Assembly (NCBI GenBank): GCA_000004985.1
Contig: GG738896.1
Strand: one strand, 5' to 3'
DNA from: Naegleria gruberi
Taxonomy: Eukaryota
Length of the DNA stretch: 64,000 bases
Shown here in pieces: positions 2,077-58,765 of this stretch. The stretch's first letter is position 1. The number at the start of each line of letters is the position of its first letter. The translations under genes were made by a program, and so were the position numbers. A model generated the notes under the pieces. The model made no database searches. It was given only the letters and a program-made list of their open reading frames with translations, and was not told the DNA's origin.

Positions 2077-2194
2077 GGCTACGGCCATATCACGATGAAT
2101 GCACCTCATCCCGTCCGATTTGAGAAGTTAAGCATCGTCGAGCCACATCAGTACTGAGGTTGGAGACAACTTGGGAACCTGTGGTGCTGTAGTC
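2077..2194 (+). rRNA. 5S ribosomal RNA, copy 1
   Basis: 118 nt, GGCTACGGCCATATCAC...GGTGCTGTAGTC, followed by a T-run Pol III terminator. Helix I pairs the 5' and 3' ends. Identical to copy 3 and one mismatch from copy 2. Confidence 0.9.
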
Positions 2195-2361
2195 TTTTAT
2201 TTTTTATTTATCAAGATATGATTACTTCTTTTTAGTTGGTTAAATTCTATTAACAATGTTGGAAAATGTGTTGAAAATATTGGAAGGTGAGATTTGCGTG
2301 ATTGACAATAAGATGCCTTAACTTTGCAAAGTTCATCAAGGCAAAATTAAAATCAAAAAAA

Positions 2362-7160: not shown

Positions 7161-7233
7161 TGTATGTTCAATCCAAAATTTGTTCCAAAGTTTGATCATT
7201 AGAAATTGTATTATTTGTAGTTTAGGATATTGC
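7161..7233 (-). repeat. Dispersed repeat / gene fragment, about 90% identical to 16128-16200 (5' coding end of the gene at 16128-17182)
   Basis: The reverse complement aligns with CAATATCCGAAACTACAAATAATCCAATTTCTAATCATGATCAAACTTTGGAACAAATTTTGGAT at 16128. The partner copy abuts an assembly gap, so the full extent is unknown. Confidence 0.5.
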
Positions 7234-16127: not shown

Positions 16128-17182
16128 CAATATCCGAAACTACAAATAATCCAATTTCTAATCATGATCAAACTTTGGAACAAATTTTGGATGAACATTG
16201 TCGAATGATGTTTTTGGATATTCTATTCGATATGAAAGAGTTTACGATGGATGAAATATTTGATAGGAATGATGGAGATATTAATTGTGAAATGGAAAGT
16301 GTTGTAGAATCATTCAAGGGATGTCCAAAAAATGGATGGAATTCAGTATTGGATCAATATTCGTATAAAGTTTATGCTAATTTGTGGATTAATTATCCTA
16401 AACTGAGAGAAATATTTGCGAAATCATTGATAGTGTTTGTTCCAGTAGAAGTGATTGTGAACTATGATCAATTTTTTAGATTAATTAATAAGGGAGAAAT
16501 CTCAATGAATCAACTGAAATTTATTCGAATTCAAGGGGATAGAACTCGAGAATTAAAATTGGAAATAGGGAATGAATCTTTCTTACTGGTTGATGTTAAG
16601 AAATACACAACATTAGGCAATAGACAAGCCCGTTTAAGGAGATGGCAAGAACTTAATTCCAATGCCAAATTTGGAATCGTTATTCAAAGTCTCATTAGTT
16701 TCGATCATCCTTTTGAATTTTCTGAATATGAATTCTTTGATTCGATTGGAATTATCAAAGAATATTTAACCCATAAGGCATCAAAGGAATTGCGAATTGT
16801 TTTCATGTTTACAATGGCCGATTTACTATATGAAAAATCAACTTTCCAATCCAAGAATTTGAAAGAACCCACTAGAGATCGAATAGAATTGAAACATATT
16901 GGAAATATGAATAAGGAACGAGATTTGATTAATTCAGTTCTTGACTTTTATCAAAACGTGTTTGAGACTTTCAGAGAGAATGAAAAATTCGAGTATCATA
17001 TTATTAATAATCTGTCCACTGATGAATCATATCAAGCACTGATAGAATCGAATAAGGAAAACGATGATCCAACCAAGCAGGTCATTATTTCTAGATCATT
17101 GATAAGGCGTTCGCTGGGAGTTTTATACAAAATGATTGGTCAATCACAATTATCAGATGTAAGCATTCGTATCACCGATTAG
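16128..17182 (+). CDS. Hypothetical protein, 5' partial (reading frame is open from the gap edge)
   Basis: The in-frame reading is open from 16128 with no stop (..ISETTNNPISNHDQTLEQILDEHCRMMF..) and continues to the TAG at 17180-82. No recognisable domain. Confidence 0.5.
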
Positions 17183-17734: not shown

Positions 17735-17852
17735 GGCTACGGCCATATCACGATGAATGCACCTCATCCCGTCCGATTTGAGAAGTTAAGCATCGTAGAG
17801 CCACATCAGTACTGAGGTTGGAGACAACTTGGGAACCTGTGGTGCTGTAGTC
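17735..17852 (+). rRNA. 5S ribosomal RNA, copy 2 (variant)
   Basis: 118 nt with one substitution relative to copies 1 and 3 (CATCGTAGAG vs CATCGTCGAG). T5 terminator. Lacks the conserved upstream element of copies 1 and 3. Confidence 0.9.
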
Positions 17853-17989
17853 TTTTTAACTTTTCCTTAATGTTGATTTCAAAAAAAGCAATACAAAGCC
17901 GAAATTGGTCCCACTAAGGAAATGAAAGGAAATGAGGGTATTATTCCAAAATAAATAATATATAAAACATAGTTCCCTGACGATGATTA

Positions 17990-20216: not shown

Positions 20217-20552
20217 TTTTTCCACTTTCGAATTTTAATTTTCATGCTATGAAATAGATAGAATTTCGTCCATTGATCAATGGTATAGAGGCGATTGGAA
20301 TAGTTTGAGACATTTTGGAGTTGAAACAAGAGATGATGAAATATTCTTCCTTTACGACATTTTTGGAAAAAAATAGAGTCAAAGTTGAGGGATCCAAAAA
20401 AGGAAATACTAAATATTTTTAAAAAATAAAAACGGAATTATGGAGCATATCATCTACACGATCAACTGACTAAAAATCGACAAAAAATAACATATATTGA
20501 ACTAGAAAATATAAAATTATTAATCATTACCCCCCATTTAAATCATTAAAAA

Positions 20553-20670
20553 GACTACAGCACCACAGGTTCCCAAGTTGTCTCCAACCTCAGTACTGAT
20601 GTGGCTCGACGATGCTTAACTTCTCAAATCGGACGGGATGAGGTGCATGAATCGTGATATGGCCGTAGCC
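20553..20670 (-). rRNA. 5S ribosomal RNA, copy 3
   Basis: Reverse complement is identical to copy 1. Poly-T terminator on the minus strand at 20548-20552. Conserved element on its 5' side at 20671-20699. Confidence 0.9.
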
Positions 20671-30150: not shown

Positions 30151-31258
30151 ATGTCTACATCAACAACAGACGATCAAGTATTGATTAAAATTGCATCGGA
30201 AGAGGAATTTTCTCAATCGGTTGTTAGTTTGATTACATCGTCATCATCAAGTGCTGTGAATGGCGTTGTTGTACACTTTTGGGCTGAATGGTGTGCACCA
30301 TGTTTTGAAATGGATAAGATTTGTGTAAATCTTGCTCAAAGGTTTACCAATATTAAATTCTATAAGGTATGGTGTAGTTAATTATGTGATAAATATATTT
30401 AAAATAATAATTAATAATTTAATTGTAAAATAGGTTGAAGCCGAACAATTACCAAATCTTACTGAACGATTCGGAGTTCACTCAGTGCCAGCTTTTGTCT
30501 TTTTACCATCAAATCAAAATGCATCTAAATTATCTTTCACAGTTTTGGAAGGTGCTAATCCACCTGAACTTTCAAAGAGAACAAAGGCTCTCTCTGAAAG
30601 TGTCAACTTGCCACAAACTCAACAACAACCAGCAGGAGGAGGTACTGATTTAACTAGTAGAATTAAGAATTTGATCAATCAAACTCCTGTTGTGCTTTTT
30701 ATGAAGGGTAATCCATCAACTCCAAAATGTGGATTCAGTAATCAAATTGTGGAAATTTTGCGTAAGGAAAACATTACTTTCTCTACATTCGATATTTTGA
30801 GTGATGAAAGCGTTAGACAAGGATTAAAGTCCTATTCAAATTGGCCAACTTATCCACAATTGTACGTTAAGGGAGAACTTATTGGAGGACTTGATATTGT
30901 AAAGGAAATGGCTCAAGAAGGAAGTCTCTGTGAACAACTTGGTCTTGAACCTGAGGAAGATTTAAATACCAAATTGAAACGTCTCGTTAATCAAGCTCCT
31001 GTCATGCTCTTCATGAAAGGATCTCCAGAGGCTCCAAAATGTGGATTCAGCTCCAAGATTGTTGCCATTCTCAATAATAATAATGTCAAATTCTCTTCAT
31101 TTGACATTTTGAGTGATGAAAGTGTTAGACAAGGATTGAAGACTTATTCAAATTGGCCAACTTTTCCTCAACTTTATTCTAAAGGAGAACTAATTGGAGG
31201 ACTTGATATCGTTAAAGAATTGGCTGATAATGGAGAATTGTTGGAAAATCTCGAATAA
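30151..31258 (+). CDS. GRX3: Glutaredoxin 3 / PICOT (Trx domain plus two monothiol Grx domains); exons 30151-30366 and 30434-31258
   Basis: Exon 1 encodes the thioredoxin-like domain ([10 protein letters not shown]). A 67-nt intron runs from GTATGG at 30367 to the AG at 30432-33. Exon 2 has two CGFS-type Grx modules ([16 protein letters not shown]; [16 protein letters not shown]). Confidence 0.85.
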
Positions 31259-36950: not shown

Positions 36951-37023
36951 CGCCCACCGTGGGGGTCGAACCCACGACCACAAGGTTAAGAGCCTTGCGC
37001 TCTACCGACTGAGCTAGACGGGC
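36951..37023 (-). tRNA. tRNA-Lys (anticodon CTT)
   Basis: 73 nt. GCCCGTCTAGCTCAGTCGGTAGAGC... Anticodon arm CAAGG-CTCTTAA-CCTTG. T arm GTGGG-TTCGACC-CCCAC. Confidence 0.9.
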
Positions 37024-39521: not shown

Positions 39522-39594
39522 GGGGATGTAGCTCACATGGTAGAGCGCTTCTTTAGCATGGAAGAGGTACGGGGATCGATACCCCGCATCTCCA
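39522..39594 (+). tRNA. tRNA-Ala (anticodon AGC)
   Basis: 73 nt. GGGGATGTAGCTCACATGGTAGAGCGC... Anticodon arm CTTCT-TTAGCAT-GGAAG. G3:T70 pair in the acceptor stem. Confidence 0.9.
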
Positions 39595-41841: not shown

Positions 41842-42959
41842 ATGTCCACTTATAAAGACGCCTCTGAAGCTGTTCTCTATGATAAGAATGGTTTGCCAAT
41901 CTATGGTATGGATTTGGAATTGGTATGTAATGATTATTCGAAACTGTTAAACTAAACAATTTTTCTTTTCCTCATTATTATTAATAATAATACAACAAAT
42001 ATTTTCCATTGCCAAATCATTAACCTCATCCATTGTATCAAACATTCCATCCACTCCACACTATTCTTTTATACGAAACCTTTCATAAATTTAAACAACT
42101 ATAGTACAAGAAACAAGCCGGTAAATACGATTCTGACAAGGAAAGAGAAGTTCAACAATGGATCGAATCTGTTGTTGGTGAAAAATTTGCTTCCAACGAT
42201 TTCCAAGAATCACTCAAGGACGGACACTTGTTGTGTAAATTGATCAACAAGATTAAACCAGGTTCCATTCCAAAAATCAACCAATCTAAATTACCATTCA
42301 TGCAAATGGAAAATATTGGTTACTTTTTGAAAGCTGCTGCTGATTTGGGTCTCCAAAAGCATGATGCTTTCATGACTGTTGACTTGTACGAATCAAAGAA
42401 TATTCCACAAGTTATTCAATCACTTTTCATTTTCGGTTCAGTTGTCCAAAAATTGCCAGGTTACAATTTGCCACGTTTAGGATTAAAGTTGGCCGATAAG
42501 AGAGAAATTGAATTCACTGAAGAACAATTGAGAAAGGCCAATGCTGAAGTTGGTCAACAATATATGGCAAGTATTAAGCACGATACTGGTCGTTCAATTT
42601 CCAGAGAAGTTGTCAAGACTCGTGATACTGGTGATGCTTCAGTTACTTCTCAATTGAGTACTGCTTCCATTAAACATGACACTGGTCGTTCAATTTCTAG
42701 AGAAGTTGTCAAGACTAGCTCTACAGGTGACAAGCGTTTCACTTCTCAACAAAATGAAAAGTCAATCTCACACGGTCAAGATAGATCTATCAGTAATGAA
42801 GTTGTCAAGATTCAACCATCTTCATCCAAGAGTCCAACAACCTCCTCTGGATCAATGGATGGTTTGGAAGAATTGGAAAAATTGGCCTCATTGAGAGATA
42901 AGGGAATTTTGACTGAAGAAGAATTCCAACAAAAGAAGAGACAAATTCTCGGATTGTAA
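41842..42959 (+). CDS. Calponin-homology protein (transgelin/calponin-like) with tandem repeats and a SHOCT-like C-terminal motif; exons 41842-41922 and 42105-42959
   Basis: Exon 1 (MSTYKDASEAVLYDKNGLPIYGMDLEL) ends at GTATGT at 41923. The acceptor AG at 42103-04 (or the in-frame alternative at 42109-10) opens exon 2, which carries the CH domain (WIESVVGEKF...LKDGHLLCKLINKIKPGSIPKINQSKLPFMQMENIGYFLKAA...TVDLYESKN). This is followed by about 27-aa repeats (SIKHDTGRSISREVVKT, 2-3 copies) and then LEELEKLASLRDKGILTEEEFQQKKRQILGL. Confidence 0.7.
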
Positions 42960-44934: not shown

Positions 44935-47508
44935 ATGATGTTTACAAGACAAACTGCCAGAAAATCAACTGGTGGAAAGGCACCTCGCAAACAAGTTGGT
45001 TCAAAATCAGCTTTAGGATTAAATTCTTCTAATGCGAGAAAATATCAAATTAATATTAGCGAGTTGAAGGCTAAACATCAACAGCAACTTTCTGATCAGA
45101 ATAATTATAATTTGAATGATGACGCTGATTTGAAGAAATTTATTGATGATCAATATGAAAATTGTGATGATTTGGTTAAAAAGTGGATTCACGATGATTT
45201 GGTCAATCAAAAAGAGGAGATTCAACAATCGGATAGTGATGTAGAGCTTGATACAAGATTGTTGAAAGAATTGGATGAAAATACCAAGTTTGAAATTTTG
45301 CAATTCATTCCAACATTTTCACCAAATGTTGCCAATCAGTCCTTGACTGAAGAAAGAAATATTGAAATGAATCTCGATACTGAATTGATTAGATTTCACA
45401 AAATGAGATTAATTAACAAGAGTTTCAACAAGATTATGATGAAGAAAATTCTCACTCTCAAACATATTACCTTGAAAACTGCTACCAACACTTTAAATTA
45501 TATTAGTTTGCTCTCTATTGCTCAGAAGGCATACAAACAAGCAATGATGATGAACTCGAACCATGATCTAAATATTGATAATGTTTTATTATATAACCCT
45601 TATTCATCAGTAGAAATAGTTGACAACAACCAAAGTTTTGGTTTCAATAACTTTGGTGGTTTTTCAACAGGTCTCAATAGCTTTGGTGGTTTCTCAACAG
45701 GATTTGGTACTTTCGGTACTACAGCAAGCAGTATACTTCAAAACACCAATGAAATCCCATCCGATTCGAGAGAACTAATTTCTGAAGATTCTGAGGATGA
45801 GCTTATTGCAAAATTGTATTTAAAGAGAGAGGACAAGAAAAATCCCCAAAAAGTAGATATTGATTACATGCGTGAAGAGGTTTATTTATACACACATGCA
45901 TCACATACCACTTCTCAAAATCAAAGTAGTTCATATCCACCTGTTATTATGACAGTCAATGAAACTATTGAAACTTTAACTTTGGTAATGGAAGATCAAT
46001 ATCTAGCCAAAGATATTGTAGGGTTTTTTTCTAAATTGAAAAGACTTAATATTTTCATGAATAATGCAACTTTTTATTACGGAGAAGTATTCAACTTGGC
46101 TTCAGAATCTCTAGAGGAAGTTTTAGTTTGTGGTGCTGGTTTGTTAGAACTTCTTATCAACCAACCATATTTGCTAAGCTCTTTTTCTGGGGCTTCTTGT
46201 CCAAAGATGACATCAGTTACATTTTCTCCTCTACTTCCAAATATTTATGCACCAGAAAATATTCTTGATACCTACTTTTCTCAACTACAAGTCACTAATC
46301 CAACCATCCACAAGCTTAATATTTATGATAAGATTGGTAGAAATGAATCCGCATTTATCAAATCTGAAGTATTTACCACTACCAATCCTGTTCAAAGAGA
46401 GCTAAATGTTTACTGTGTTCAATACAAGTCACTTGTAAACATTGATATCTTGGAGGAACTCTATGATATATTTGGAGACCGTTTCGTGAAAACCGTAATG
46501 CCATTCATGATACTCGGATATAATTGCCCTGTAACATTGGAACATGACCAATCACTTTGGAAATCTCATTTTGTGGAACACATGAAAAAGTTCAAAGATA
46601 CTGCAAATTACTTGTTCAAGAAGAGGAAATTTCCTGTTTCAAACGTGTTGCTTTCATTTGACATTATGACAAATAATGTTTTAGAACAGAACATCAAGGA
46701 CAGCAAATTACAATACCTCATATACCTATGTAACCAGTATCAAAATTCTAAACTTTTAAGCTATCTACCTGAAAACAAACAAACTCTATCAACAATTATT
46801 GCCTCAATTTATAGAGGATGGAATTTCACAAAATATACAAATGATCTCTTGGAATTCTTTGTTAGAGCCTTTTTTCACAGAGGAGTTTCTGCCATGTTAC
46901 ATAACTTTAAGTATGATGAAAAATTTATTGTATCTCAAATTGAGTATTTGGCTACTAGTTACACGATTAGTTCTACGATTAGTTCTAGGGCCGTTATTAC
47001 TGAGATAATTATCCACCTCTTCAGAAATAACTCAAAGGTTCTCTACTCTCTTCTTGCAAAACAGGTGGAAGTTTCTGATAATAACACTACATTTACAATT
47101 CCATTTATTGCCTTCCTCTTCGGAAAGGCAGATTGCTATTTAATTGCTAAACTATTTAATGAAATGGACATGGAAACATTCAATTCTTTAGGTCAAAACA
47201 ATAGAGGCGACAACATTCTCCACATTTATGTTTACTTTCAACAAGAATTTAATTACCTCATCTTTTATTCCATACTAAACAAGAATCCAAACTTGATTAA
47301 CATGGTCAATCACAAATTGCAAACTCCGCTTCATTACTTGATGACACTAAATGACAAGAGATCACCTCTTTTACTTCCAGAAATCAATCAACTTCTTAAA
47401 CGTAATAATATTTTGTTAGATATGAATGTTACCGATTATATGGAACAAACTCCTATGAGTATTCTTAAATCAGAAGAATATGAACATGAAGATATCATGT
47501 TTGAATAA
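44935..47508 (+). CDS. Large FG-repeat / ankyrin-repeat protein whose N-terminus mimics the histone H3 tail
   Basis: MMFTRQTARKSTGGKAPRKQ: residues 5-19 of histone H3 (QTARKSTGGKAPRKQ) are identical and T3 is kept. A second ARK triplet (SNARKYQ) follows. No histone fold. Mid-region FG repeats (FGFNNFGGFSTGLNSFGGFSTGFGTFG). C-terminal ankyrin-like repeats (GDNILHIYV...LQTPLHYLM). 857-codon uninterrupted ORF. Confidence 0.7.
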   Translation: MMFTRQTARKSTGGKAPRKQVGSKSALGLNSSNARKYQINISELKAKHQQQLSDQNNYNLNDDADLKKFIDDQYENCDDLVKKWIHDDLVNQKEEIQQSDSDVELDTRLLKELDENTKFEILQFIPTFSPNVANQSLTEERNIEMNLDTELIRFHKMRLINKSFNKIMMKKILTLKHITLKTATNTLNYISLLSIAQKAYKQAMMMNSNHDLNIDNVLLYNPYSSVEIVDNNQSFGFNNFGGFSTGLNSFGGFSTGFGTFGTTASSILQNTNEIPSDSRELISEDSEDELIAKLYLKREDKKNPQKVDIDYMREEVYLYTHASHTTSQNQSSSYPPVIMTVNETIETLTLVMEDQYLAKDIVGFFSKLKRLNIFMNNATFYYGEVFNLASESLEEVLVCGAGLLELLINQPYLLSSFSGASCPKMTSVTFSPLLPNIYAPENILDTYFSQLQVTNPTIHKLNIYDKIGRNESAFIKSEVFTTTNPVQRELNVYCVQYKSLVNIDILEELYDIFGDRFVKTVMPFMILGYNCPVTLEHDQSLWKSHFVEHMKKFKDTANYLFKKRKFPVSNVLLSFDIMTNNVLEQNIKDSKLQYLIYLCNQYQNSKLLSYLPENKQTLSTIIASIYRGWNFTKYTNDLLEFFVRAFFHRGVSAMLHNFKYDEKFIVSQIEYLATSYTISSTISSRAVITEIIIHLFRNNSKVLYSLLAKQVEVSDNNTTFTIPFIAFLFGKADCYLIAKLFNEMDMETFNSLGQNNRGDNILHIYVYFQQEFNYLIFYSILNKNPNLINMVNHKLQTPLHYLMTLNDKRSPLLLPEINQLLKRNNILLDMNVTDYMEQTPMSILKSEEYEHEDIMFE

Positions 47509-47659
47509 TTGAAACTTAATGATAGCAAGCATTTCTTCCAAGCTAATAAAATTTTTACAGTAAGGATTTCATGTATTTAATTGTTTGTTGGGCAACCAGA
47601 ATTAATCGATTAATTTTACACTTAAAGGAATCCGCAAACCAATAATGAACCAAAATGAA

Positions 47660-47730
47660 GTGCATTAGCCGGGAGTCGAACCCGGGTCACCAGCTTGGAA
47701 GGCTGGTATGATACCGTTACACTACTAATG
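47660..47730 (-). tRNA. tRNA-Gly (anticodon TCC), copy a
   Basis: 71 nt. GCATTAGTAGTGTAACGGTATCATACCAGCCTTCCAAGCTGGTGACCCGGGTTCGACTCCCGGCTAATGCA. Anticodon arm CCAGC-CTTCCAA-GCTGG. Confidence 0.9.
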
Positions 47731-47912
47731 CTTTCTTGGTTAATTCATTCCTTAATGTTCACGATTAAGCACGATATCCCATTCTGTTTATTCCTTTTTA
47801 ATCAATTTCTGGAACTTTCATTCTTAATTCGAATTGAACATAACGGTACTATAGCATTAGGCCTACTATTCTTGAATTCTCCTGGAGGGAATTTACATCC
47901 CATTTAAAAACA

Positions 47913-49165
47913 ATGAAAGCAAAAAAATTTCAAATCAGTAAAAAAAAAATGGAGCTATTGGAAGAATCATGCTTGCTCTCAGTGATTAATCTTCCAAAAG
48001 AGATTTGGCTCTATCAAATATGTGAATATTTAGATATTCTTGATATGATTTTTTCGCTGGGGAGAGTTTGCAAAGCATTTCGATATGAATTGGCAAACGA
48101 ATATCTTAAAAAATTCCCAAAAACAAAAAAGAAGGATTCGAATGATCAAGTCAGTTCGATAGATAGCTTTTCAATGAGAAGAGTGAAATATATTATCAGA
48201 GATGAATTACTGAAATTTATTGTAAAGTTTGAAAAATCTCTGACGAATGAAGGAATTTTCGAAAAGAAGGACACGAGCCATGTATCAGAACAGTCCAATG
48301 CTCAACAAAATGATCCAAAATCAACAAATGGTGGTCCCACAATAGAAAAAGAACGTTTAATGGAATTATTCCAATCAAGAATGGAAATATTCGACTTTTA
48401 CTTTTCACATTTCTATAAGAAATTACCAAGTGACGCTAGTGAATCAGCTATCAAGCAAACTTCCATTGCTTCTTCCCTATTTAAATCTGAAAATCAATTA
48501 GTTGAATCCTCATCAGCAAGAAACACTGAAATGAAAAAGATTTTGATTATCGGCAATGGTGGAGGTAAGTTTTCATTGTTAAATATTTCTCTAAATATTT
48601 AAAGTTGGAAAAACAACATTTTGCAGATCAATGCAGGATTTACCACTAAACGATAACCGAAATCTACCAACTATTGGTTGTGAAATCAACTCTTACCGAT
48701 TGAAAATTGCCGGTTTGGAAGCAAATATTAATTTATGGGATACAGGTATGTTCCACACTTTTTAATTGAGATTTTTATTAAAATCAAACAGTTGGTCAGG
48801 AAAAGTTTGGTTTTCTTAGAGATACCCTTTATGTGAATACTTCAGTGTGCATCATTTGTTTTGATCTTACCAGTAGATATTCCTACAAATCTATTCTGAA
48901 TTGGTTCAGGGATATCAAAAGAGTGGAACCTGAATGTGAAGTGATATTTGTCGGAACGAAACTAGATCTAACCGACAATCTGAAAGTAACACCCAAGCAA
49001 ATTACTTTTCCAATTAACAAGTATTGTCCATATATTGGATTGAGTAGTCTTCAACAGATTAATAATAGAGCAGTGTTGTGGTATGTTGCTTTTATGAATC
49101 TGTTTGTTTCCCATTTGAAAGGTATTCATGAAACTCTCATTTGTGATAAAGAAACAATAAATTGA
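47913..49165 (+). CDS. F-box / Ran-like small GTPase fusion protein (3 exons: 47913-48564, 48605-48745, 48792-49165)
   Basis: Exon 1 has an F-box (LSVINLPKEIWLYQICEYLDILDMIFSLGRVCKAFRY) and ends KKILIIGNGG at GTAAGT 48565. A 40-nt intron precedes exon 2 (VGKTTFCRS...INLWDT), which ends at GTATGT 48746. A 46-nt intron precedes exon 3 (VGQEKFGFLRDTLYV...VIFVGTKLDL...). The Ran-like pattern is GDGGxGKTTF...WDTAGQEKFGGLRD. All phases are 1 and consistent. Confidence 0.7.
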
Positions 49166-49263
49166 TTTAGACTTACCTTAGTGTGGAACATTAAGGTTTT
49201 ATAATAAATAGAATGAGATATTGTGCTTAACCGTGAATATTAAGGAATGAAATAAGCAAGAAA

Positions 49264-49334
49264 GCATTAGTAGTGTAACGGTATCATACCAGCCTTCCAA
49301 GCTGGTGACCCGGGTTCGACTCCCGGCTAATGCA
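49264..49334 (+). tRNA. tRNA-Gly (anticodon TCC), copy b
   Basis: Identical 71-nt sequence to copy a, in opposite orientation. About 50 bp of 5' flank and about 35 bp of 3' flank are also conserved with the other copies. Confidence 0.9.
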
Positions 49335-49960
49335 TTTCCTTTTGATTCTTGGTTTGCAGATTCCCTTATTATTGTTACTGTGGTACTTAAGCAAATGAAA
49401 ATTTTCTCGCGAAAAAATATATATTAAAATACTTCAATACTCTTCTTTGACTCCTTTTGCATATTGGATTATGAACTTTGATTACCATTATTGGTGTTGA
49501 TGTCTAATGGTGAGCTAGTTGAGGGATTGTCTCTTTCAAAATGTGATATTGAGCATATTCATCCTTAATAGAGAGATACCAAGCCGAATCAATTGGCCGT
49601 TCACACACTTGTAAGCATTATTAGACCGTTAGTAGTACATGTACTTGATAAACATGGTAACTAATCGATTGGATTGTTAGTTAAACGAAACTGCTCACAA
49701 CCCATCAAAATATTCGAAAGGTGAAACAAACATCATTTCTGAAATATAGCACGTTTCTTTCGGCGATTTCACATGCATTATTTTGTGAGAACTTTCTATT
49801 TAAGTGCAACATCTTTTTAAATGGAAAGTGATGCCCGAGATGAAATCTCTGAAAAAATAGGTTACTTTCCAATAATTGAAATTTGTAAACGAAAGCACGA
49901 ACAATAACTTTCCACCTGAACCACACAAGAATCTCTTAAAAAAAACAATAACACCCAATC

Positions 49961-51062
49961 ATGAACTATCCTAAAGCTTTAGTTGTATTTCTGATATCTT
50001 TCGCTATCCTCAACGTTGGTATCTTTGCCATCACTGTTTCTCAAGATTTTACCAATGCATTTGATGCAGCTGTCCAAGCAATGATTACTGACAGCGAATG
50101 GAATAAATTCTATTCTGACACGATGTATTTTACAGTGCCAACATGTACAAGTGCAACTGTCAAATGGCCAACTAAGAATCCATTCATTGGTAGAAGTGGT
50201 TTAAACATGTGTTTCGAAACTGGAACTTTATCTCCGTGGTTAGAAACCAAGACGAAAATTGCTCAAATGGTTGTTCAAAAGATTAATTCACACTATGGAA
50301 CAAGTTATAATGCAAATATTTTGAGATTTAATACAAGTGCATTGGGATTCTTTGATACGATGAAAAATGCTGTGAATAATGGAGATTGTAAGTTTCGAAT
50401 ATATTTTTTAAGTTTCGAATATTTTGAAATAATTAATGTTTGATAATTTCGAATAGGTGATATGATAACTGCTAATATTCTTGTTACTGCCGAAAGAAGT
50501 TCATCCATTCATTATCAATGTCCATTCGGATCTGGTTCAAATGGTTGGATCAGAACTAAAAGAGATCCACAACTTTCCATTACTGATATTTCTCAATTGA
50601 ACAAGACTGGAATCATGGTTGGAGGTAAGTTATTGATCATTCATGAAATTTCTCATTCATTATTCAACAAATCTATTCGAAACACAGCTTATGAAGGAAC
50701 TGCTTTTGCAACTTATGTGAAAACTAATCTTCCAGCTGCAACTTTTGTGCCATATTCTGGTATTAACTTGCAATATGACGCTGTTTTGGATGGATCAGTT
50801 CATGCAATTATTGGAGATGGTAAGTTTAATTTAGTTTATTATTGGTATTCGAAACCTTTCAGCTATTCAATATTACAATTGGGCCAATGTTCAAATGTCA
50901 GGAAAATGTAATTGCACTGTTAAAACTTATGGAAATACATTCGGTATGGCCACTTTCACCAATGTGAATATTACAACAAGCGGAGTTGACCAAATCGGCG
51001 GAGGAAATGTTTGGACCTCCTTTTTGGTATTAATAATAGTTTCCATTTTAGTCATGTTTTAA
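49961..51062 (+). CDS. Secreted, probably GPI-anchored, solute-binding-protein family 3 (SBP_bac_3 / iGluR ligand-binding-like) protein; 4 exons
   Basis: Signal peptide MNYPKALVVFLISFAILNVGIFA. Exons 49961-50387, 50457-50624, 50688-50819 and 50863-51062 (alternative in-frame acceptor at 50899). All introns are GTAAGT...AG, phase 1. Matches the SBP_bac_3 pattern: GDMITANILVTAERSSSIHYQCPF...LNKTGIMVG...YEGTAFATYVKTNLPAATFVPYSG...DAVLDGSVHAIIGD. Hydrophobic C-terminus (VWTSFLVLIIVSILVMF). Confidence 0.65.
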
Positions 51063-51185
51063 ATAATAATATACTAATAATTTTTGTCAAGCAACAGTAT
51101 TGTTGACTTCAATAAATCCTAAATATTAAATTAAAAAGAGAAATCTTTAAAAATCTCAAATTTTGGCGCCAAAAGTCAAAAAAAA

Positions 51186-52760
51186 ATGTGGAATGCGAAT
51201 TCTCCTGCGCCATGCTCATCAGGATCATCGGTTGATCAGCAGCAATACAGTCCACTTCCCATCGCCTCTATTCAACAATTTACATCAACAGTAACTCATC
51301 ACGAATTTGTAATGCACTCATCAGAATTATTTGTCGAATTATTTTGAATTCCTGATCGTAAAAAGAAGAATAATTCTGATTATTTGGATGCATATTTCAA
51401 GTCTACAAAGTCTTTTGATGCAAACAAGTATCAATCACAGATTAATCCACAAATTGTACGTCAAGTCCAAATATCAAGTAATGGTATCTCAGATCATTGT
51501 ACAAATGTGCGTTCGTGGTTTATTGAAACCATCATGATGAGAATGGGTATTTTCCTACCTGAGAACATTTCGTTGGTGAAGAGAATTGGAGAGGGAGCTT
51601 ATGGCAGCGTGTATAGAATTGGTAAAGATAAAGTGTTGAAGATTGCTAAAGATGGTGAAGCCATCAAGAAGTTTGATCATCCATTATTGTTGAGTATTGA
51701 GAGGCTTTTTTGGTATGAAGCTGAGAAACTCTTGTTGATTGTTTCTCCATACTATGAATTGGGACATTTGAGAGGTCAATTCACATTAGGTCAATATTGG
51801 TCAATTCTTTGTAATTTGACAAATGCTCTCAAGTATTTACATTCCCAACAAGTTGTTCATAGAGATATCAAGCCAGCAAACATACTTGTAGAAAAAAAGG
51901 ACAAATTTGAAGTGAAAGTTGTTTTAGCTGATTTTGGATTGGCGAAATCGTTCGATTCTTGCAGTGCAGGAAGTGTAGGAACGACCTACTTTGTAGCTCC
52001 AGAATTAATGAAAGGTTATGATGGAGAACATAGTGCTAGAAGAAGAGTTGCCAATGAGAAGAGTGACATTTTTTCTCTTGGAAAGACTATTAGCGTTCTA
52101 ATTTTGAATGACAAACCTGAAGATTTGGAATTTAAGAAGGGGAATTCACTCACCGAATTGCTTAATCGTATGATGAAGTACAAGCCAGAGAATAGACCTT
52201 CGACTGATGAAATTATTTCAATATGTGAAATGGAGATTTCAAAGCTTTCAGAGACTGATTACAATGCAATTTTCAAATTATCCGACAATGATATTGAAAT
52301 ATTTGATGAAATGAGCTTTTACACTGAAAGTAGTTTGAGTGATGGTTTGTTGAAAATGTTAATAAGCGGAGAAAGTTCTCAAAGTCAATCTGCTGTTAAA
52401 CATTCATACACGTTTGATCTTCACGATGACGGTGTTGTAAATGCCAAGAAAATAATTCACATCAAGTGCACACCAGAGGCAAGATTGGCCATCGAATCAA
52501 TCTATCTCAGAATTTACAACACCAAATTCAATACAGGACTCATTGATGTAACCAATTGCTTGTCCAAATCAGTTAGAGAAATATCCAATGATAATGAAAA
52601 GAAATATGCCATCTCTGGTTCACAAAAACAATATCTCATTCCTGCCAAGTCGAAATATCAAAATGAAAAAGGAAAGGACACTATTGAATTGTATATTAAT
52701 AATAGGGATGAACATGTGGCTTCAGCCAATTATGTCGCCAAGAATAATAAAAATAATTAA
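51186..52760 (+). CDS. Ser/Thr protein kinase (exons 51186-51308 [tentative] and 51402-52760)
   Basis: Kinase motifs IGEGAYGSVY, VLKIAK, HRDIKPANILV, DFGLAK, APELMKG. The ORF-track start at 51384 is a TTG and the first in-frame ATG is at 51534. A 41-codon GC-richer ATG exon (MWNANSPAPCSSGSSVDQQQYSP...THHEF) with a GTAATG donor at 51309 and an acceptor AG at 51400-01 joins in phase 0. Plausible but unproven. Confidence 0.7.
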
Positions 52761-52984
52761 TCGAATCCTAAGCTAATAAGAATCAAAAGGAAGTGCATTA
52801 GCCGGGAGTCGAACCCGGGTCACCAGCTTGGAAGGCTGGTATGATACCGTTACACTACTAATGCTTTCTTGCTTATTTATTTTCAACCGTAATGTTCCGG
52901 ATTAAGGGATGCAATATTTTCAATAATTATTTATTTCAATAATCTATTATTCAATTAAAAGTGGAATGACATGTCAGAGAACTT
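52703..52984. repeat. 282-bp segment (last 58 nt of the kinase CDS plus tRNA-Gly plus flanks), duplicated at 54902-55183
   Basis: About 95% identical direct repeat 2.2 kb downstream. The two copies bracket the F-box/LRR gene at 53035-54714. Confidence 0.85.
52794..52864 (-). tRNA. tRNA-Gly (anticodon TCC), copy c
   Basis: Identical 71-nt sequence, minus strand. Confidence 0.9.
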
Positions 52985-53034
52985 ATTTATGAACATGAAT
53001 AATAATTCAATATTATTAATTATTACTAAAAAAA

Positions 53035-54714
53035 ATGAGCAAACGAAATAGACACAATTTTCCATTAATTCCGGAGAAGGAAATATTCAATAATAACACT
53101 CAAGCAAAAAAGAAAAAACTTGTACTCCATGAACAACGAGAAGAAATATTTTCAGATGATATTTGTTTTGAAATAATTTCCATGATTGATGATTCGTGGT
53201 TTATTTTAAATAATTGTACTTTAATTTCAAAACAATTCTTTAATGTGATCCGAGAACGTTCTAAACTTGTTATTCAATTTAAAAAAAAATTTACAGAGAA
53301 AAGAATTGAATTATTCATGAAAAGTCAATTCATGAATAGTATTGCTAATGTTAAATTTTCCGTTTACTCCTTAGACAATGCCAAATTCATAAGTGAAATG
53401 AAACAATTGACATCACTTGGTATTGCTGAAAATCGAATTGGTGATGAAGGAGTTAAATTCATAAGTGAAATGAAACAATTAACTTTACTTGATATATGTT
53501 GCAATGAAATTGGTGTTGAAGGAGCCACGTCAATAAGTGAAATGAAGCAATTAACATCACTTAATATTTCTGGCAATCGAATTGGTGATGAAGGAGCTAA
53601 ACTCATCAGTGAAATGAAGCAATTAACATTACTTAATATTGCTGACAACCGAATTTGTGTAGAAGGTGCAAAATCAATAAGTGAAATGAAACAGTTAACA
53701 TCACTTAGTATTTCTGACAACGAAATTGGTGTAGTAGGAGCAAAATTAATAAGTGAAATGAATCAATTAACATTACTTAATATTTCTAACAACGAAATTG
53801 GTGATGAAGGAGCCAAATTCATCAGTGAAATGAAACAATTGATATCGCTTGATATTTCTAACAATCTAATTGATATAGAAGGTGCAAAATCAATAAGTGA
53901 AATGAAACAGTTAACATCACTTGAGATTTATTACAATGAAATTGGTGATGAAGGAGTCAAATTCATAAGTAAAATGGAACAGTTAACATCGCTTGATATT
54001 TCTGGAAATCAAATTGGTGTAGGAGGAGCTAAATCAATAAGTGAGATGAAACAATTGACATTTCTTCAAATATTTTCCAATCGAATTGGTGATGAGGGAG
54101 CAAATTCAATAAGTGAAATGAAGCAATTAACATCACTTAATATTTATTACAATCAAATTGGTGATGAAGGAGTCAAATTCATAAGTGAAATGGAACAATT
54201 AACATCACTTGATATTGGTGGAAATCAAATTGGTGTAGGAGGAGCTAAATCAATAAGTGAGATGAAACAATTGACATTTCTTCAAATATTTTCCAATCGA
54301 ATTGGTGATGAGGGAGTCAAATTCATAAGTGAAATGAAGCAATTAACATCACTTAATATTTCTGGCAATCGAATTGGTGATGAAGGAGCCAAGTCAATAA
54401 GTGAAATGAAGCAATTAACATTACTTTACATTTCTAGCAACGAAATTGGTGATGAAGGAGTCAAATTCATAAGTGAAATGAAACAATTAACTTTACTTCA
54501 AATATATTCCAATCGAATTGGTGATGAGGGAGTCAAATCAATAAGTGAAATGAAGCAATTAACATCACTTAATATTTCTGGCAATCGAATTGGTGATGAA
54601 GGAGTCAAGTCAATAAGTGAAATGAAGCAATTAACATCACTTAATATTTCTAACAATCGAATTGGTGATGAAGGAGTCAAATTATTAACATCACTTAATA
54701 TTGTCTTATTTTAA
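53035..54714 (+). CDS. F-box / RNI-type leucine-rich-repeat protein (about 20 near-identical 24-aa repeats)
   Basis: F-box-like DDICFEIISMIDDSWFILNNCTLISKQFFNVI. This is followed by repeats of EMKQLTSLNISGNRIGDEGAKSIS, each encoded by a 72-bp unit that is highly similar at the DNA level. Confidence 0.8.
   Translation: MSKRNRHNFPLIPEKEIFNNNTQAKKKKLVLHEQREEIFSDDICFEIISMIDDSWFILNNCTLISKQFFNVIRERSKLVIQFKKKFTEKRIELFMKSQFMNSIANVKFSVYSLDNAKFISEMKQLTSLGIAENRIGDEGVKFISEMKQLTLLDICCNEIGVEGATSISEMKQLTSLNISGNRIGDEGAKLISEMKQLTLLNIADNRICVEGAKSISEMKQLTSLSISDNEIGVVGAKLISEMNQLTLLNISNNEIGDEGAKFISEMKQLISLDISNNLIDIEGAKSISEMKQLTSLEIYYNEIGDEGVKFISKMEQLTSLDISGNQIGVGGAKSISEMKQLTFLQIFSNRIGDEGANSISEMKQLTSLNIYYNQIGDEGVKFISEMEQLTSLDIGGNQIGVGGAKSISEMKQLTFLQIFSNRIGDEGVKFISEMKQLTSLNISGNRIGDEGAKSISEMKQLTLLYISSNEIGDEGVKFISEMKQLTLLQIYSNRIGDEGVKSISEMKQLTSLNISGNRIGDEGVKSISEMKQLTSLNISNNRIGDEGVKLLTSLNIVLF
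53380..54700 (+). repeat. Tandem array of about 72-bp coding repeats (LRR units) inside the F-box/LRR gene
   Basis: ATAAGTGAAATGAAACAATTAACATCACTTAATATTTCTGGCAATCGAATTGGTGATGAAGGAGCCAAATCA and variants, about 18-20 copies. A decayed partial unit follows the stop (54740-54800). Confidence 0.85.
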
Positions 54715-54901
54715 TTGGGTGTTTATTGAAACGCCTTAATCAATGATATTAATGAAGAAGGAGTTAAATATTAGAGAGACATGAAACAATTAATTGCTCT
54801 TGTTTAGTTCGTGTGATGGATCTTGACATGAACTTGATTGTTGACTTAATTTGTCTCTCATGGAATCAATGAAGTTACTAACTTTTTGTCATATATAGAC
54901 G

Positions 54902-55183
54902 ATAGGGATGAACATGTGGCTTCAGCCAATTATGTCGCCAAGAATAATAAAAATAATTAATCGAATCCTAAGCTAATAAGAATCAAAAGGAAGTGCATTA
55001 GCCGGGAGTCGAACCCGGGTCACCAGCTTGGAAGGCTGGTATGATACCGTTACACTACTAATGCTTTCTTGCTTATTTATTTTCAACCTTAATGTTCCGG
55101 ATTAAGGGATGCAATATTTTTCTTAAAATAATTATTTATTTCAATAATCTCAATTAAAAGTGGAATGACATGTCAGAGAACTT
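54902..55183. repeat. Second copy of the 282-bp kinase-3'-end / tRNA-Gly segment
   Basis: Contains a 58-nt orphan fragment of the kinase CDS (DRDEHVASANYVAKNNKNN*) and tRNA-Gly copy d. Small indels distinguish it from the 52703-52984 copy. Confidence 0.85.
54994..55064 (-). tRNA. tRNA-Gly (anticodon TCC), copy d
   Basis: Identical 71-nt sequence, minus strand, inside the duplicated segment. Confidence 0.9.
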
Positions 55184-56827
55184 GTGTAAATTATCATCTA
55201 CAGATTGATTCAATAATTTTTGTTTGAAATTGTCTGCTGAGCCACGGAATTCTGCTATCAGAAGCATATTTACATCACATCCAGATTGCACATCCAAAAT
55301 ATCGTATTTTTCTTTGAATAATAACTCGGCCAATTTTCTATCCAACATCTTATTGGTTGCAGAAAGAGAAGATGGTGAAATAACAGAGACGTATGGAGAT
55401 TGAAATGGCAGAATTTCCTTTGAAACACCCGAATATTTACCACCTTGTGTGAATAGAGTCTTCTTATTGATTGTACCAAAAGAGCAATAGTATCCGCCAA
55501 AGAGTTTAATGTCCATCGAGCCCAAATCGCAATAGCTACTGAATAAATCCTGTTGTTTTTTTTCATTACTTGTAATGACTGGTTTTTCAAGAGGAGATGA
55601 GCTATTGATCCAGTGAGAGCTGTTTGACATGTGACCACCAGCAAATGCTCTTACGTTTCTTTCAATCAAATCAAATTCATTTCGTTCCTTTCCAATGAAA
55701 TGGAGAGAATTGTCTTCCAATTGAGCATAGACTCCATTATCAGTTTGTCCAATTTTTACAATAGGATATTTCAATGCATCTAGATTTGGAACTCGGTGTG
55801 TAGTTCCAGCAGTTACTTTCCATGCAGTTTCACCACAACTATAAATCAAAAATCTGTTAAAGACCAATGCACTTGAAAATGTACCACAAGTCAAGTCTGT
55901 CACTCTATAGGTTTCGTATGGATTTTCATCATGATTACCCGATTTAAAAATGTCAAAAGAATCATTCAAAACTTGATATTGAGGATTGAAATCTGCTCCA
56001 AACAATTGTTTGAAATAAGAGTGACCAGCTCCCAAAATAATATTCCTATTCACAACAATAATGGTATGGAACCAACCACAGGCAACAAAATCAACAGTTT
56101 GAATATTACTAAAATGTTGTCTGATAAAACTTTCTTGCTTTTCACTCCAATTACGAGTTCTAATGATAGAAGGCAATGCATTAGACATGGCAGATGTTAA
56201 ATAATCATTCAATGGTGAAAATAGCTCTACATATTCAGAGGGTTCAGTTTGTAACTGATTATAATTATTCTTTCCACAGCCAAATACTTTAGCATCACTC
56301 GCTATATTTGATTAACACAACAACAGTCAATAATATTAGCTACTTACTAGCAATCAATGAGTGAGATCTTCCGCAAGCAATAATATTCACTCGACTAAGA
56401 ATTTCTTCACTTTCATTATCAGAAAGTCCTTTAATTTGTGTAACTTCCTTCCATTCTTCCATTGAACTAACATCATTCCTATCAAAACCTAATTGTGCAC
56501 TATCATTAGATCCTATTTAAATATATTTGTAACGTTAAACTTCATCATGCAAACGTTTCGAAACTTACCTGAAGTAAATATCTTGGCTCTCTTGATAGAA
56601 TTGCCTGACGAGGCTGATGGTAATTGTCTCTTGGTTGCTGGATTTCTTTCCTTTTGCTTCTTTCTATTATTATTTGATAAAGTTGAATTATTCAGTGATG
56701 GTGAGGATATTATCGATGTTTCTGATGATGAAGGAGAAGACTGATCACTAACCACCTGATTCAAATCTTCATTCTGGTCCGATCGGTTGTTATTACTACC
56801 AAATAGCGATCCAAAAAATTGCTTCAT
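55154..56827 (-). CDS. RCC1-repeat (regulator of chromosome condensation-like) protein; 3 exons: 56569-56827, 56348-56512, 55154-56301
   Basis: Exon 1 (MKQFFGSLFGS..., Ser-rich) ends at G|GTAAGT. A 56-nt intron precedes exon 2 (GSNDSAQLGFD...RVNIIACGRSHSLIA), which ends at A|GTAAGT. A 46-nt intron precedes exon 3 (TSDAKVFGCGKNNYNQLQTE...VACGWFHTIIV...). RCC1 signatures CG..HS/HT and G.N..GQLG. Phases 1, 1 are consistent. Confidence 0.65.
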
Positions 56828-57111
56828 TCTTTCAATGAGTTTTTTCAAGTGTTTTTTCAAGTACGCGTAAAAAACTTTTGCGAATTTTTTTTAAATTTGA
56901 TTTTGCTGTTGAAAGATGCATAAATGTTTGAAATGATGAGTTCGCAATAGTTGCCTTTTTTGGGGACATTTGAGAGGGAAGTTGCTTTAGTGAGTTGTTT
57001 GGAATGTGAGTGTAAAAAACATGGTTCTAATCAGTTGAGAAACTAGTATTGATATTGAGGGAAAATATCTCTAGGAATGACGTTTTGGCGGTTGGCAGTT
57101 GGTGTGGAATT

Positions 57112-58368
57112 TTAGAGAGCTTTCCAGAATTGTCTGATACCGAGAAGGAGCATAGTAAGGGAGAAGGTATGCTTTAAAACTTGTTCGTCCATGTTGCTGG
57201 CAAGGAAACCTCCACTGTAAGCTCCTACTGCACTTCCTGTCATTAAAATTGGAGCTAGTTTGAGAATGACATTTCCAACTCTCCAATGTGAATAGAGAGC
57301 TACTGAAGAAGGGATGGTCATGGCAGCAAGTGAAGTACCAATGACTAGTTTTGTTGATGTGTGTTCCTTTTTGATTGGTGACTTGTCACTCCATAAAAAA
57401 CTCAACGCTGGAACAATTAGAATTCCACCACCAACTCCAAGTAAGCCACTCATCACACCAATGATTGAACCCAAAACAAAGAGAGCTCCTGCTTCTTGAA
57501 TGGATGGTAATTTCAATTTCTGATTTGTTTCAGATTGTTCCTTTGTGCTATCACTCACTGGTTTCTCCTTCTCATCGTCAGAATGAAGCAATGAAACAAG
57601 TGGAGCCACAAACAACATGAAACAGGCAAGAATTAATTTTAAAGTCCTATCCTGAATCGAGCTCGATAATTTGACTCCAAATCTTGCAGTAAAGGCAGCA
57701 AAAGTTGCAATCAAAATTGATGTTACAATATCTACAGAATTATCACCAACAAAATACAATGTACCAGCTCCCACAAAGCCAGCAGTCACAACAGTCACTA
57801 GACAGGTGGCTACAATCTGCTTGGCGCTCAATAAATGTGGAAATAATTGAGTAATTAATGGAATTAAAATGATATTTCCACCCAAACCAACCATTCCACC
57901 AAAAGTTCCTCCCACAATAGAAACTCCAAATAATTTTACAAAATCCCAAGTATTAAACACTGGATTTGGTTTTGTAATTTGTTCATCCTTTTTCATATTT
58001 GAATTTTCCTTATTGTCTGATGAAGAACAAGTCGAATCGGAATTGGTTTGCAAAGATGAAGCTTCCTTTTCCCTCATCAACACTCCCCTACTCCATTCTC
58101 TCTTAATAACCCTTCCAAAATTCATCAATAACCCTTCCGAAGATCCTCTATAATTAATATTCCCATGTTTCTTTTCAAATTCATCATCATGATTATTTAC
58201 AATTTTAAAATTTCTAAAATCTGGCAAAGATTTCTTCATCAACAAATTATTGTTGTTATTATGCAAAGATAATTTTGCTAATCCCGAACCCACAACAACA
58301 GTAGAAATTTTCGGTGGCATCTTACAAGAAGATGTGGAGATGAAAATGGTCGCAGATCGTTTGAGCAT
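57112..58368 (-). CDS. TSUP/TauE-SafE family membrane transporter (DUF81)
   Basis: Two DUF81 halves with G-rich TM motifs (FGVSIVGGTFGGMVGLGGNIILIPL; GVMSGLLGVGGGILIVPAL), linked by a hydrophilic loop. Real ATG at 58368. Confidence 0.75.
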   Translation of the reverse strand: MLKRSATIFISTSSCKMPPKISTVVVGSGLAKLSLHNNNNNLLMKKSLPDFRNFKIVNNHDDEFEKKHGNINYRGSSEGLLMNFGRVIKREWSRGVLMREKEASSLQTNSDSTCSSSDNKENSNMKKDEQITKPNPVFNTWDFVKLFGVSIVGGTFGGMVGLGGNIILIPLITQLFPHLLSAKQIVATCLVTVVTAGFVGAGTLYFVGDNSVDIVTSILIATFAAFTARFGVKLSSSIQDRTLKLILACFMLFVAPLVSLLHSDDEKEKPVSDSTKEQSETNQKLKLPSIQEAGALFVLGSIIGVMSGLLGVGGGILIVPALSFLWSDKSPIKKEHTSTKLVIGTSLAAMTIPSSVALYSHWRVGNVILKLAPILMTGSAVGAYSGGFLASNMDEQVLKHTFSLTMLLLGIRQFWKAL

Positions 58369-58765
58369 TTTTTTTTATGAATTTTCTTGTTTTTGAAAAT
58401 GTTTTTTGTAATTTTAAAGATTTTGTTTGGTGGGTGGATAATAAATTTCTCCGATTTCATTGGATTCTTGAGTGTCCTTTACAATAACTTGAAATGCTAT
58501 AATCTTCCATTTTAGTCTTTGATGTATAAAGCTCTGATGTTCAGAAATATTAAACTTCAAGTCAAGAGTAGACATACCTTGCCCACATTCTTCAAAACGA
58601 AATCCCGCGCTCAATTCCTCTTATTAAAGCTTTGGAAAACAACAAAGGAGAAAATTCAACAAGAAATTGATTCTCTCTTGGCCTTGAAATCGTGGAAGGC
58701 TTCCAAAAGCTATTATAATCTGATGACTCCAAATTCTTGGAGAATATATTTAAAAAACAAAAAAA

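Follow-up and report, generated by a model that had tools for sequence, protein, structure and literature searches.

Dispersed transfer RNA (tRNA) gene copies in Saccharomyces evolve in concert by conversion, and rearrangements in that genus are flanked by tRNA genes in opposite orientation. Other known systems in which tRNA genes take part are the retroelements that target them, such as TRE and DGLT-A of Dictyostelium and Ty1 and Ty3 of yeast, and the tRNA-derived short interspersed elements (SINEs). Sites of gene gain in yeast are ~3-fold enriched beside tRNA genes (Gordon, Byrne & Wolfe 2009, PMC2675101); the causes proposed are that forks stall at tRNA genes or that these genes are fragile, and that broken ends take up DNA or cDNA. 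Staggered breaks or paired nicks that are filled in, with insertion of filler sequence, give tandem duplications; related processes are the fill-in of broken ends by Pol alpha-primase/CST (PMC8355091) and replicative template switching (PMC11790251). Here we consider, in the light of these systems, a locus in a 64,000-nucleotide stretch of the Naegleria gruberi NEG-M genome (contig GG738896.1; the whole stretch is called the window below), where four identical tRNA-Gly(TCC) genes, a to d, lie among short genes. We propose that these genes form a young local tRNA-Gly(UCC) cluster, of which the c/d pair arose by recent insertion of a segment with a leucine-rich repeat (LRR) gene that duplicated 282 bp of its target, an explanation we hold to be probable by a modest measure. 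The closest parallel is the yeast gene gain (PMC2675101), in which likewise lineage-specific or orphan-family genes were inserted in spacers that hold tRNA genes. The yeast result, however, is statistical and confounded by Ty elements, whereas in Naegleria there is one locus, without a retroelement and with a 282-bp duplication footprint preserved.

The evidence that carries this proposal lies in the following features.

51402-52760, plus strand: protein kinase gene (EFC39871.1/NAEGRDRAFT_72323), its last 58-59 nt lying in repeat copy A_c
52702-52984, no strand assigned: repeat copy A_c, with the kinase 3' end at 52702-52760 (functional here), tRNA-Gly c and the tRNA 5' flank
52794-52864, minus strand: tRNA-Gly c (ARAGORN, Rfam)
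~52954-52984: relic of the RCC1-like gene in A_c, its last 9 codons and stop
52985-54901, plus strand: segment B, unique, 1,917 bp, between the repeat copies, consisting of 50 nt upstream, the LRR open reading frame (ORF) at 53035-54714 (559 aa) and 187 nt of 3' sequence
54902-55183, no strand assigned: repeat copy A_d, with a relic of the kinase 3' end at 54902-54960, tRNA-Gly d and an intact palindrome at 55087-55106
54994-55064, minus strand: tRNA-Gly d (ARAGORN, Rfam)
55154-55183, minus strand: functional end of the RCC1-like gene in A_d, last 9 codons and stop
55154-56827, minus strand: RCC1-like gene (EFC39943.1/NAEGRDRAFT_81174, 523 aa), exons 56827-56569, 56512-56348 and 56301-55154

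An earlier note on this DNA had described a 282-bp direct repeat that also copies the last 58 nt of the kinase coding sequence (CDS), and both parts of that description hold: 52702-52984 recurs as 54902-55183 (283 versus 282 nt; the start of 52703 in the earlier note is 1 nt late), and the last 58-59 nt of the kinase CDS, with its stop codon at 52758-52760, recur at 54902-54960. Globally aligned, the copies are identical over the first 187 nt and are set apart in the remainder by 1 substitution (52889 G / 55089 T) and 3 indels in AT-rich runs. What had been overlooked is that the repeat takes in, at its right, the 3' end of the minus-strand RCC1-like gene, whose stop codon is 55154-55156 and on whose codon boundary the repeat end at 55183 exactly falls. 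The left end is made up of the last 19 codons and stop of the kinase, an ORF (51402-52757) 100% identical to an N. gruberi predicted protein. Because both boundaries of the repeat lie inside CDSs, those of the convergent kinase and RCC1-like genes, the tRNA looks like a passenger or a site marker and not like the recombining sequence, and the c/d repeat, spanning from one CDS interior to the other, is not bounded by the tRNA unit. Most likely, the repeat is the whole former kinase> tRNA-Gly <RCC1-like spacer, duplicated around an insert. A 9-nt sequence, ATGAACATG, near the starts of both the repeat and segment B is not significant against shuffles.

Taken by itself, the A-B-A structure fits three single-event histories: segment B was inserted (history 1), the repeat was pasted from c into the RCC1-like end (history 2a), or it was pasted from d into the kinase end (history 2b). 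They differ by which coding tails are ancestral. For the RCC1-like gene, whose RCC1-like assignment is weak by Pfam, the rebuilt three-exon product (523 aa) is exactly EFC39943.1, and its homologues, brought up by a full HMMER scan, are one N. gruberi paralogue and proteins of N. fowleri (49% identity, aligned up to residue 349 of 352), N. lovaniensis and Willaertia magna. The window protein ends in KFSDMSFHF and the homologues in RFCDIDIVSA, NLSDLEIICL, SFIDMSIVCL, KFADIEIVAT and KFCDVILI, so that a conserved family C-terminus of the form (K/R/S)F.D(M/I/L).(I/F).., also KF.D..F.., conserved in other Heterolobosea, is found over five homologues in three genera, with an invariant Asp (D347). 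Since the RCC1-like tail matches this C-terminal motif, the tail in copy d is to be regarded as ancestral coding sequence and not as derived from a spacer. The kinase tail, in turn, has no homologues; with the codon usage of this window as training set, its log-likelihood ratio is +5.15 bits, and 3.7% of stop-free intergenic windows score as high, which suggests a coding-like tail with weaker support than that of the RCC1-like gene. As is to be expected of a target duplication, the unique insert lies between two direct copies of a segment in which both neighbours have their genuine 3' ends, the point being weaker for the kinase. We favour history 1, with 2b as its main rival.

Two other lines were tried here and set aside. 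A coding origin of the repeat ends was argued from GC content, an argument we dropped with coding and intergenic GC in the window near-equal (32.5% versus 30.5%). The representative of the RCC1-like protein's 90% cluster, a 53-aa protein (P0114/L007, ENA ERZ25073769 ctg131406), is unrelated, and its contig shares nothing with the window; its membership is a clustering artefact in the protein collection.

A close relative bears on the age of the c/d event. The ENA metagenome assembly ERZ929261 (run ERR1078381) holds an N. gruberi-group relative, one contig of which (L005) matches 50957-52864 at 97.7% while another (L006) matches ~56467-58667 similarly closely. On L005 the kinase tail is the same as in NEG-M and the tRNA is identical. 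The spacer there is GAATCCGTGAGC, with GAATCC-TAAGC in both NEG-M copies and GAATCCGCAAAC in tRNA-Gly unit a, so the L005 state resembles that of unit a. Because c and d share changes that are derived relative to L005, the c/d duplication, or a later homogenisation of the two copies, appears to be younger than the ~2% strain split.

Let us assume, then, that the origin of the c/d pair was separate from that of the other copies and that the ancestral arrangement was kinase(+) > tRNA-Gly(-) < RCC1-like(-), with a convergent spacer of ~193 bp. A 1.9-kb segment with a lineage-specific LRR gene would have entered that spacer, and 282 bp of target would have been duplicated, comprising the spacer, the kinase's last 19 codons and the RCC1-like gene's last 9 codons. 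Such a target duplication would explain how both old genes kept intact 3' ends, the tRNA gene being doubled as a by-product. Judging from the structure, breaks staggered by ~280 nt might have been filled in and joined to a captured fragment; alternatively, replication might have jumped to a donor template and then returned to where the segment begins. The accounts of fill-in and template-switch duplications agree with the c/d pair in that direct duplicates lie between break points with foreign sequence at the junction, with no transposon features and no long junction homology. The duplications in those accounts are mostly small and their fillers short, whereas here 282 bp and a whole-gene filler of 1.9 kb are concerned. 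The location would be explained if the tRNA gene stalled forks or were prone to break; this is speculation by analogy with yeast, as is the notion that the tRNA gene caused the c/d event. As to retention, extra tRNA-Gly(UCC) copies may have been tolerated or favoured, since no other Gly codon is used as often as GGA (49% in the long ORFs of the window).

The inserted LRR ORF consists of a family-specific N-terminal region and ~18 repeats of 72 nt; beyond its stop codon stands one more LRR unit, degenerate and out of frame (54748-54802). Within the array, identical 55-mers lie 216 nt apart (54013-54067 = 54229-54283), which indicates a recent internal duplication. The ORF is absent from the annotated N. 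gruberi proteome; its closest relatives, five N. gruberi proteins and one from ERZ929261, are 63-72% identical in amino acids over the N-terminal region, and no LRR paralogue was found elsewhere in the window. A paralogue contig (L001) from the same ERZ929261 assembly as the close relative has 81% DNA identity to segment B, over coding sequence only. No terminal inverted repeats were detected in segment B, for which the test fell below the shuffle mean and the inverted-repeat scan of the ends was empty, and no poly(A) was found; nor does the ORF list contain a transposase or reverse transcriptase (RT) ORF in or around segment B or the tRNA units. By these features segment B is neither a recognisable transposon nor a retrocopy.

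The four tRNA genes had been described as identical, and so they are: each is 71 nt long and is called by both ARAGORN and Rfam (RF00005), with 69.3 bits against the Rfam gathering score of 29 and the anticodon tcc per ARAGORN, and a TTTT run that can serve as terminator stands 5-8 nt beyond each 3' end. Metagenome scans with tRNA-Gly, at full length and with its 3' half, gave 0 matches. Comparison of the window with itself recovered both the direct repeat and an inverted pair formed by units a and b, the coordinates in that note being off by no more than 1 nt (copy a, for one, is displaced by 1 nt). The a and b copies and their surroundings are as follows.

47623-47792, minus strand: unit a, with 38 nt of 3' flank and 61 nt of 5' flank; palindrome at 47750-47769
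47661-47731, minus strand: tRNA-Gly a (ARAGORN, Rfam)
49203-49368, plus strand: unit b, a mosaic, with its tRNA at 49264-49334
49264-49334, plus strand: tRNA-Gly b (ARAGORN, Rfam)

On the 3' side ~38 nt and on the 5' side ~40-60 nt of flank are common to all four units, in agreement with the earlier description. The arms of the inverted pair, 47623-47792 and 49368-49203, are 90.6% identical over 170 nt, and units a and c are 87% identical over 152 aligned nt. The homology extends ~60 nt upstream of the tRNA and ~30 nt beyond the TTTT terminator. Because it covers the 5' flank and passes the terminator, the units were copied as DNA and not by retroposition of RNA polymerase III (Pol III) transcripts, and all four would descend from one ancestral unit of ~170 bp. 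We suppose that this unit (the tRNA with ~38 nt on the 3' side and ~60 nt on the 5' side) was copied as DNA into neighbouring short spacers, giving a, b and c, and that later gene conversion partly homogenised the copies.

Unit b is the reason for invoking conversion. In four-sequence site patterns, the distal flanks hold ~20 substitution sites and shared indels that group a and b against c and d. The central 101 nt of b (49250-49350; the tRNA with ~15 nt on each side), on the other hand, are 99% identical to c/d, with 0 sites supporting the grouping of a and b versus c and d, and unit a has 5 private differences there. The closest relative of the central tract of b thus differs from that of its flanks, and the simplest reading is that gene conversion between b and the c/d lineage has made unit b a mosaic and that the copies evolve in concert. 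As in Saccharomyces, there are identical tRNA copies, a conversion patch reaching ~15 nt into each flank of unit b, and an inverted tRNA pair around a segment of 1.4 kb; unlike in Saccharomyces, conversion in Naegleria is deduced from a four-sequence mosaic, and there is an inverted pair only, the inversion itself not being demonstrated. The tRNA-associated recombination suggested earlier is visible, therefore, as a gene-conversion mosaic among the tRNA copies.

The a/b arms contain the old ~170-bp unit only, with no coding ends inside. The a/b inverted duplicate cannot have come from the mechanism that made c/d; it must be the product of a separate paste or inversion event. That the pair brackets a gene may simply reflect a tRNA cluster interleaved with short genes, for with four tRNA-Gly copies over six spacers the bracketing of a gene needs no special explanation. 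The gene in question is this one.

47913-49165, plus strand: small GTPase gene, exons 47913-48564, 48605-48745 and 48792-49165

Its annotated form is EFC39869.1, 'ran family small GTPase', of 376 aa with a start at 47949, and its product has a Pfam Ras match at E=6.5e-29. Both this gene and the LRR gene had been labelled F-box genes and the arrangement taken for F-box gene cassettes, which we cannot uphold. With the Pfam families PF00646/PF12937 at or above the curated cutoff as the measure, the F-box-like signal of the GTPase gene is 17.4 bits against a cutoff of 24.3 bits, and in the LRR family a Pfam signal appears in one of 7 N-termini, at E=0.17. A profile search of the LRR family N-terminus against the PDB gave no F-box match, its AlphaFold2 model (pLDDT, the predicted local distance difference test score, 41) is too poor for use, and the residues …CFEIISMIDD…LISKQFFNVI are F-box-like by eye only. 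The N-terminal regions of the GTPase and LRR genes have no detectable homology; the two bracketed genes are unrelated to each other, and neither is demonstrably F-box. Of the suggestion that tRNA-associated insertion moved F-box genes, the insertion stands, the c/d repeat being best read as one at a spacer that holds a tRNA, whereas a tRNA-mediated F-box cassette is otherwise unsupported.

The flanks of the tRNA genes might, however, have been kept similar by function, as Pol III upstream promoter elements, terminator context or processing signals, and not by recent descent. We consider this doubtful as the explanation of the units, yet deserving of serious attention, because of a motif in the conserved 5' flank. 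That flank contains the palindrome CTTAAT-N7-ATTAAG, and the conserved 5' motif reported before is confirmed as CTTAATCNNGAAYATTAAGG, which has 6 matches at ≤3 mismatches versus 0.2 expected; the loop of the palindrome in c/d is CCGGAAC, unlike the CGTGAAY given earlier. The 64-kb window has 5 perfect CTTAA-N(0-12)-TTAAG sites, each standing at most 65 nt upstream of a Pol III gene: tRNA-Gly a, b and d have one each and 5S ribosomal RNA (rRNA) copy 1 has two (at -20 and -65), so that two independent gene families are involved. The palindromes and the other Pol III genes of the window are as follows.

2012-2025, 2057-2067, 47751-47769, 49226-49244 and 55088-55106: perfect palindromes
49177-49196, plus strand: diverged extra motif copy, CTTAGTGTGGAACATTAAGG, 49 nt upstream of unit b's own motif
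2077-2195 (plus), 17735-17853 (plus) and 20552-20670 (minus strand): three dispersed 5S rRNA genes, Rfam 100-106 bits
35309-35380: tRNA-Pro(TGG), single-copy, in its own short spacer
36951-37023: tRNA-Lys(CTT), single-copy, in its own short spacer
39522-39594: tRNA-Ala(AGC), single-copy, in its own short spacer

With ≤1 mismatch allowed, 10 of 33 sites fall within 120 nt upstream of the window's ten Pol III genes (seven tRNAs called by ARAGORN and three 5S rRNA genes), versus ~0.6 expected. The palindrome stands at -38/-42 of tRNA-Gly and a 1-mismatch version at 5S copy 3, spacing and position being variable, and AAGGAATGA occurs three times in the window, each time upstream of a Pol III gene. 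Yet the motif is absent upstream of tRNA-Pro, tRNA-Lys, tRNA-Ala and 5S copy 2, one substitution breaks the palindrome of copy c, and the palindrome analysis was made post hoc. Further, the similarity of a and b is continuous (~84% over the flanks) and drops abruptly at the unit ends, which is the pattern of descent and not of constraint on a motif, and on the 3' side it passes the TTTT terminator. The upstream regions of tRNA-Gly and 5S gave no significant whole-length alignment. The earlier idea of a Pol III upstream element is thus borne out to the limited and post hoc extent that palindromes adjoin tRNA-Gly and 5S genes, and fails as a general rule. We found nothing in the literature on Naegleria tRNA flanks, Naegleria Pol III promoters or this LRR family. 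The extra motif at 49177-49196, which has a spacer of c/d type and stands directly after the GTPase stop codon, may be all that remains of a partial tandem duplication or a fifth unit.

As to the surroundings of these genes, the window has a GC content of ~32%, densely packed genes and small introns. The 5S copies 1 and 3 have ~33 nt of 5' flank in common, which 5S copy 2 lacks. In the window comparison tRNA-Pro, tRNA-Lys and tRNA-Ala have no flanks in common with the tRNA-Gly units or with each other, except for a short GGAATGAA-like match between the regions upstream of tRNA-Lys and of Gly b (z=3.6). An 857-aa ORF at 44935-47508 is 100% identical to an N. gruberi predicted protein. The self-comparison also brought out, elsewhere in the window, a 72-nt inverted pair (92%) and several internal or tandem coding repeats; their coordinates are these.

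7164-7232 and 16128-16198
30677-30913 and 30989-31225
4714-5198 and 5554-6019
42573-42634 and 42669-42730

History 2b, which we judge unlikely, takes d as the original and supposes that a 282-bp copy was pasted 2.2 kb upstream into the kinase 3' end, with the LRR gene already resident. The kinase would then have gained a 19-codon tail, and its old end would read ...NNL-stop at 52985-52992. It is in keeping with this history that similar pastes of the tRNA-Gly segment, in either orientation, must have made a, b and c, that no close LRR donor is known, and that the LRR gene would be old, consistent with its 63-72% identity to paralogues. On the other hand, the present tail of the kinase looks like coding sequence (p ~0.04 for its codon score among stop-free intergenic windows), and the ancestral kinase stop would have stood just 42 nt from the LRR ATG. 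Moreover, the tail is already identical in the 2.3%-diverged relative while c and d share changes that arose after the split, so that a later conversion would be needed.

It is very unlikely, in our view, that the locus is a mobile cassette, whether a tRNA-targeting element or the ~170-bp unit itself as a transposable or SINE-like sequence, carrying the LRR or GTPase gene. The outer boundaries nearly coincide among units a, b and c/d, at ~38 nt 3' and ~60 nt 5' of the tRNA, two lineage-specific genes lie between unit copies, and the tRNA-targeted elements of Dictyostelium and yeast offer a precedent; like TRE, Ty and SINEs, the locus presents an insertion adjoining a tRNA gene and a repeated unit containing a tRNA. 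Unlike them, it has no RT or integrase, no long terminal repeats, no poly(A) and no short target-site duplications, and neither segment B nor the units are accompanied by terminal inverted repeats or transposase ORFs; since the homology covers the 5' flank and passes the terminator, no Pol III transcript can have been retroposed, the ends of the c/d repeat are not those of the unit, and the bracketed genes are unrelated. The LRR paralogue of the related Naegleria, on L001, has no adjoining tRNA and no flank homology, contrary to the proposal of an LRR gene moving together with a tRNA. From its sequence features, then, the locus is not a member of the class of tRNA-targeted retroelements and SINEs.

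Still less probable is history 2a, in which c is the original and the copy was pasted into the RCC1-like 3' end, replacing its last codons. It is a single event that needs no donor, and the repeat boundary lies exactly on a codon boundary, the displaced tail reading RLYMTKS-stop; the ancestral RCC1-like tail described above, with its invariant D347, nevertheless removes this history, which we regard as largely refuted. Finally, a mis-joined 282-bp repeat or LRR segment in the draft scaffold is hardly credible, for although tRNA and LRR repeats are hard to assemble and the LRR gene is missing from the annotation, a collapse or mis-join at identical sequence would not create 1 substitution, 3 indels and unique junctions on both sides, and an independent assembly of the close relative confirms the kinase-tRNA side.

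We need to pay attention, at the same time, to several aspects that weigh against the insertion of segment B with target duplication. The inverted a/b pair lies outside its mechanism, and at least some of the tRNA-unit copies were therefore pasted independently. The argument from the kinase tail concerns a short sequence. No donor of segment B was recognised among the annotated N. gruberi proteins, which is weak evidence, B itself being unannotated. A complete ORF with just 50 nt upstream in B is a coincidence under random capture of a fragment. An empty site was not observed: L005 covers the kinase and the tRNA and breaks off exactly with nucleotide 1 of tRNA-Gly c (the tRNA 5' end), and the orthologous locus of N. 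fowleri, whose surroundings differ, are not syntenic and contain no tRNA, gives no empty site either.

One may go further and suppose that tRNA spacers in Naegleria are preferred break-and-fill-in landing sites for new lineage-specific genes, each arrival duplicating hundreds of bp of target and doubling the tRNA, that the c/d arrangement is perhaps a strain polymorphism, and that CTTAA-N-TTAAG is perhaps an undescribed element of some heterolobosean Pol III genes. We put this forward as a long shot. Setting that generalisation aside and returning to the insertion with target duplication at this single locus, we deal with a clear case of a genome change whose type is known and not with an element of a new type; local tRNA duplication, gene conversion and duplication-associated insertion are each known already. 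While the footprints of gene gain beside tRNA genes in yeast have long decayed, one appears to survive at the Naegleria locus, where a whole convergent spacer and both coding ends, 282 bp together, stand in near-identical duplicate around a single inserted gene without transposon hallmarks. If an empty site exists in another strain, this would be a natural example of a gene and a tRNA copy gained in one step in a compact protist genome. If the landing-site reading were true, tRNA amplification and the gain of fast-evolving gene families would be mechanistically coupled.

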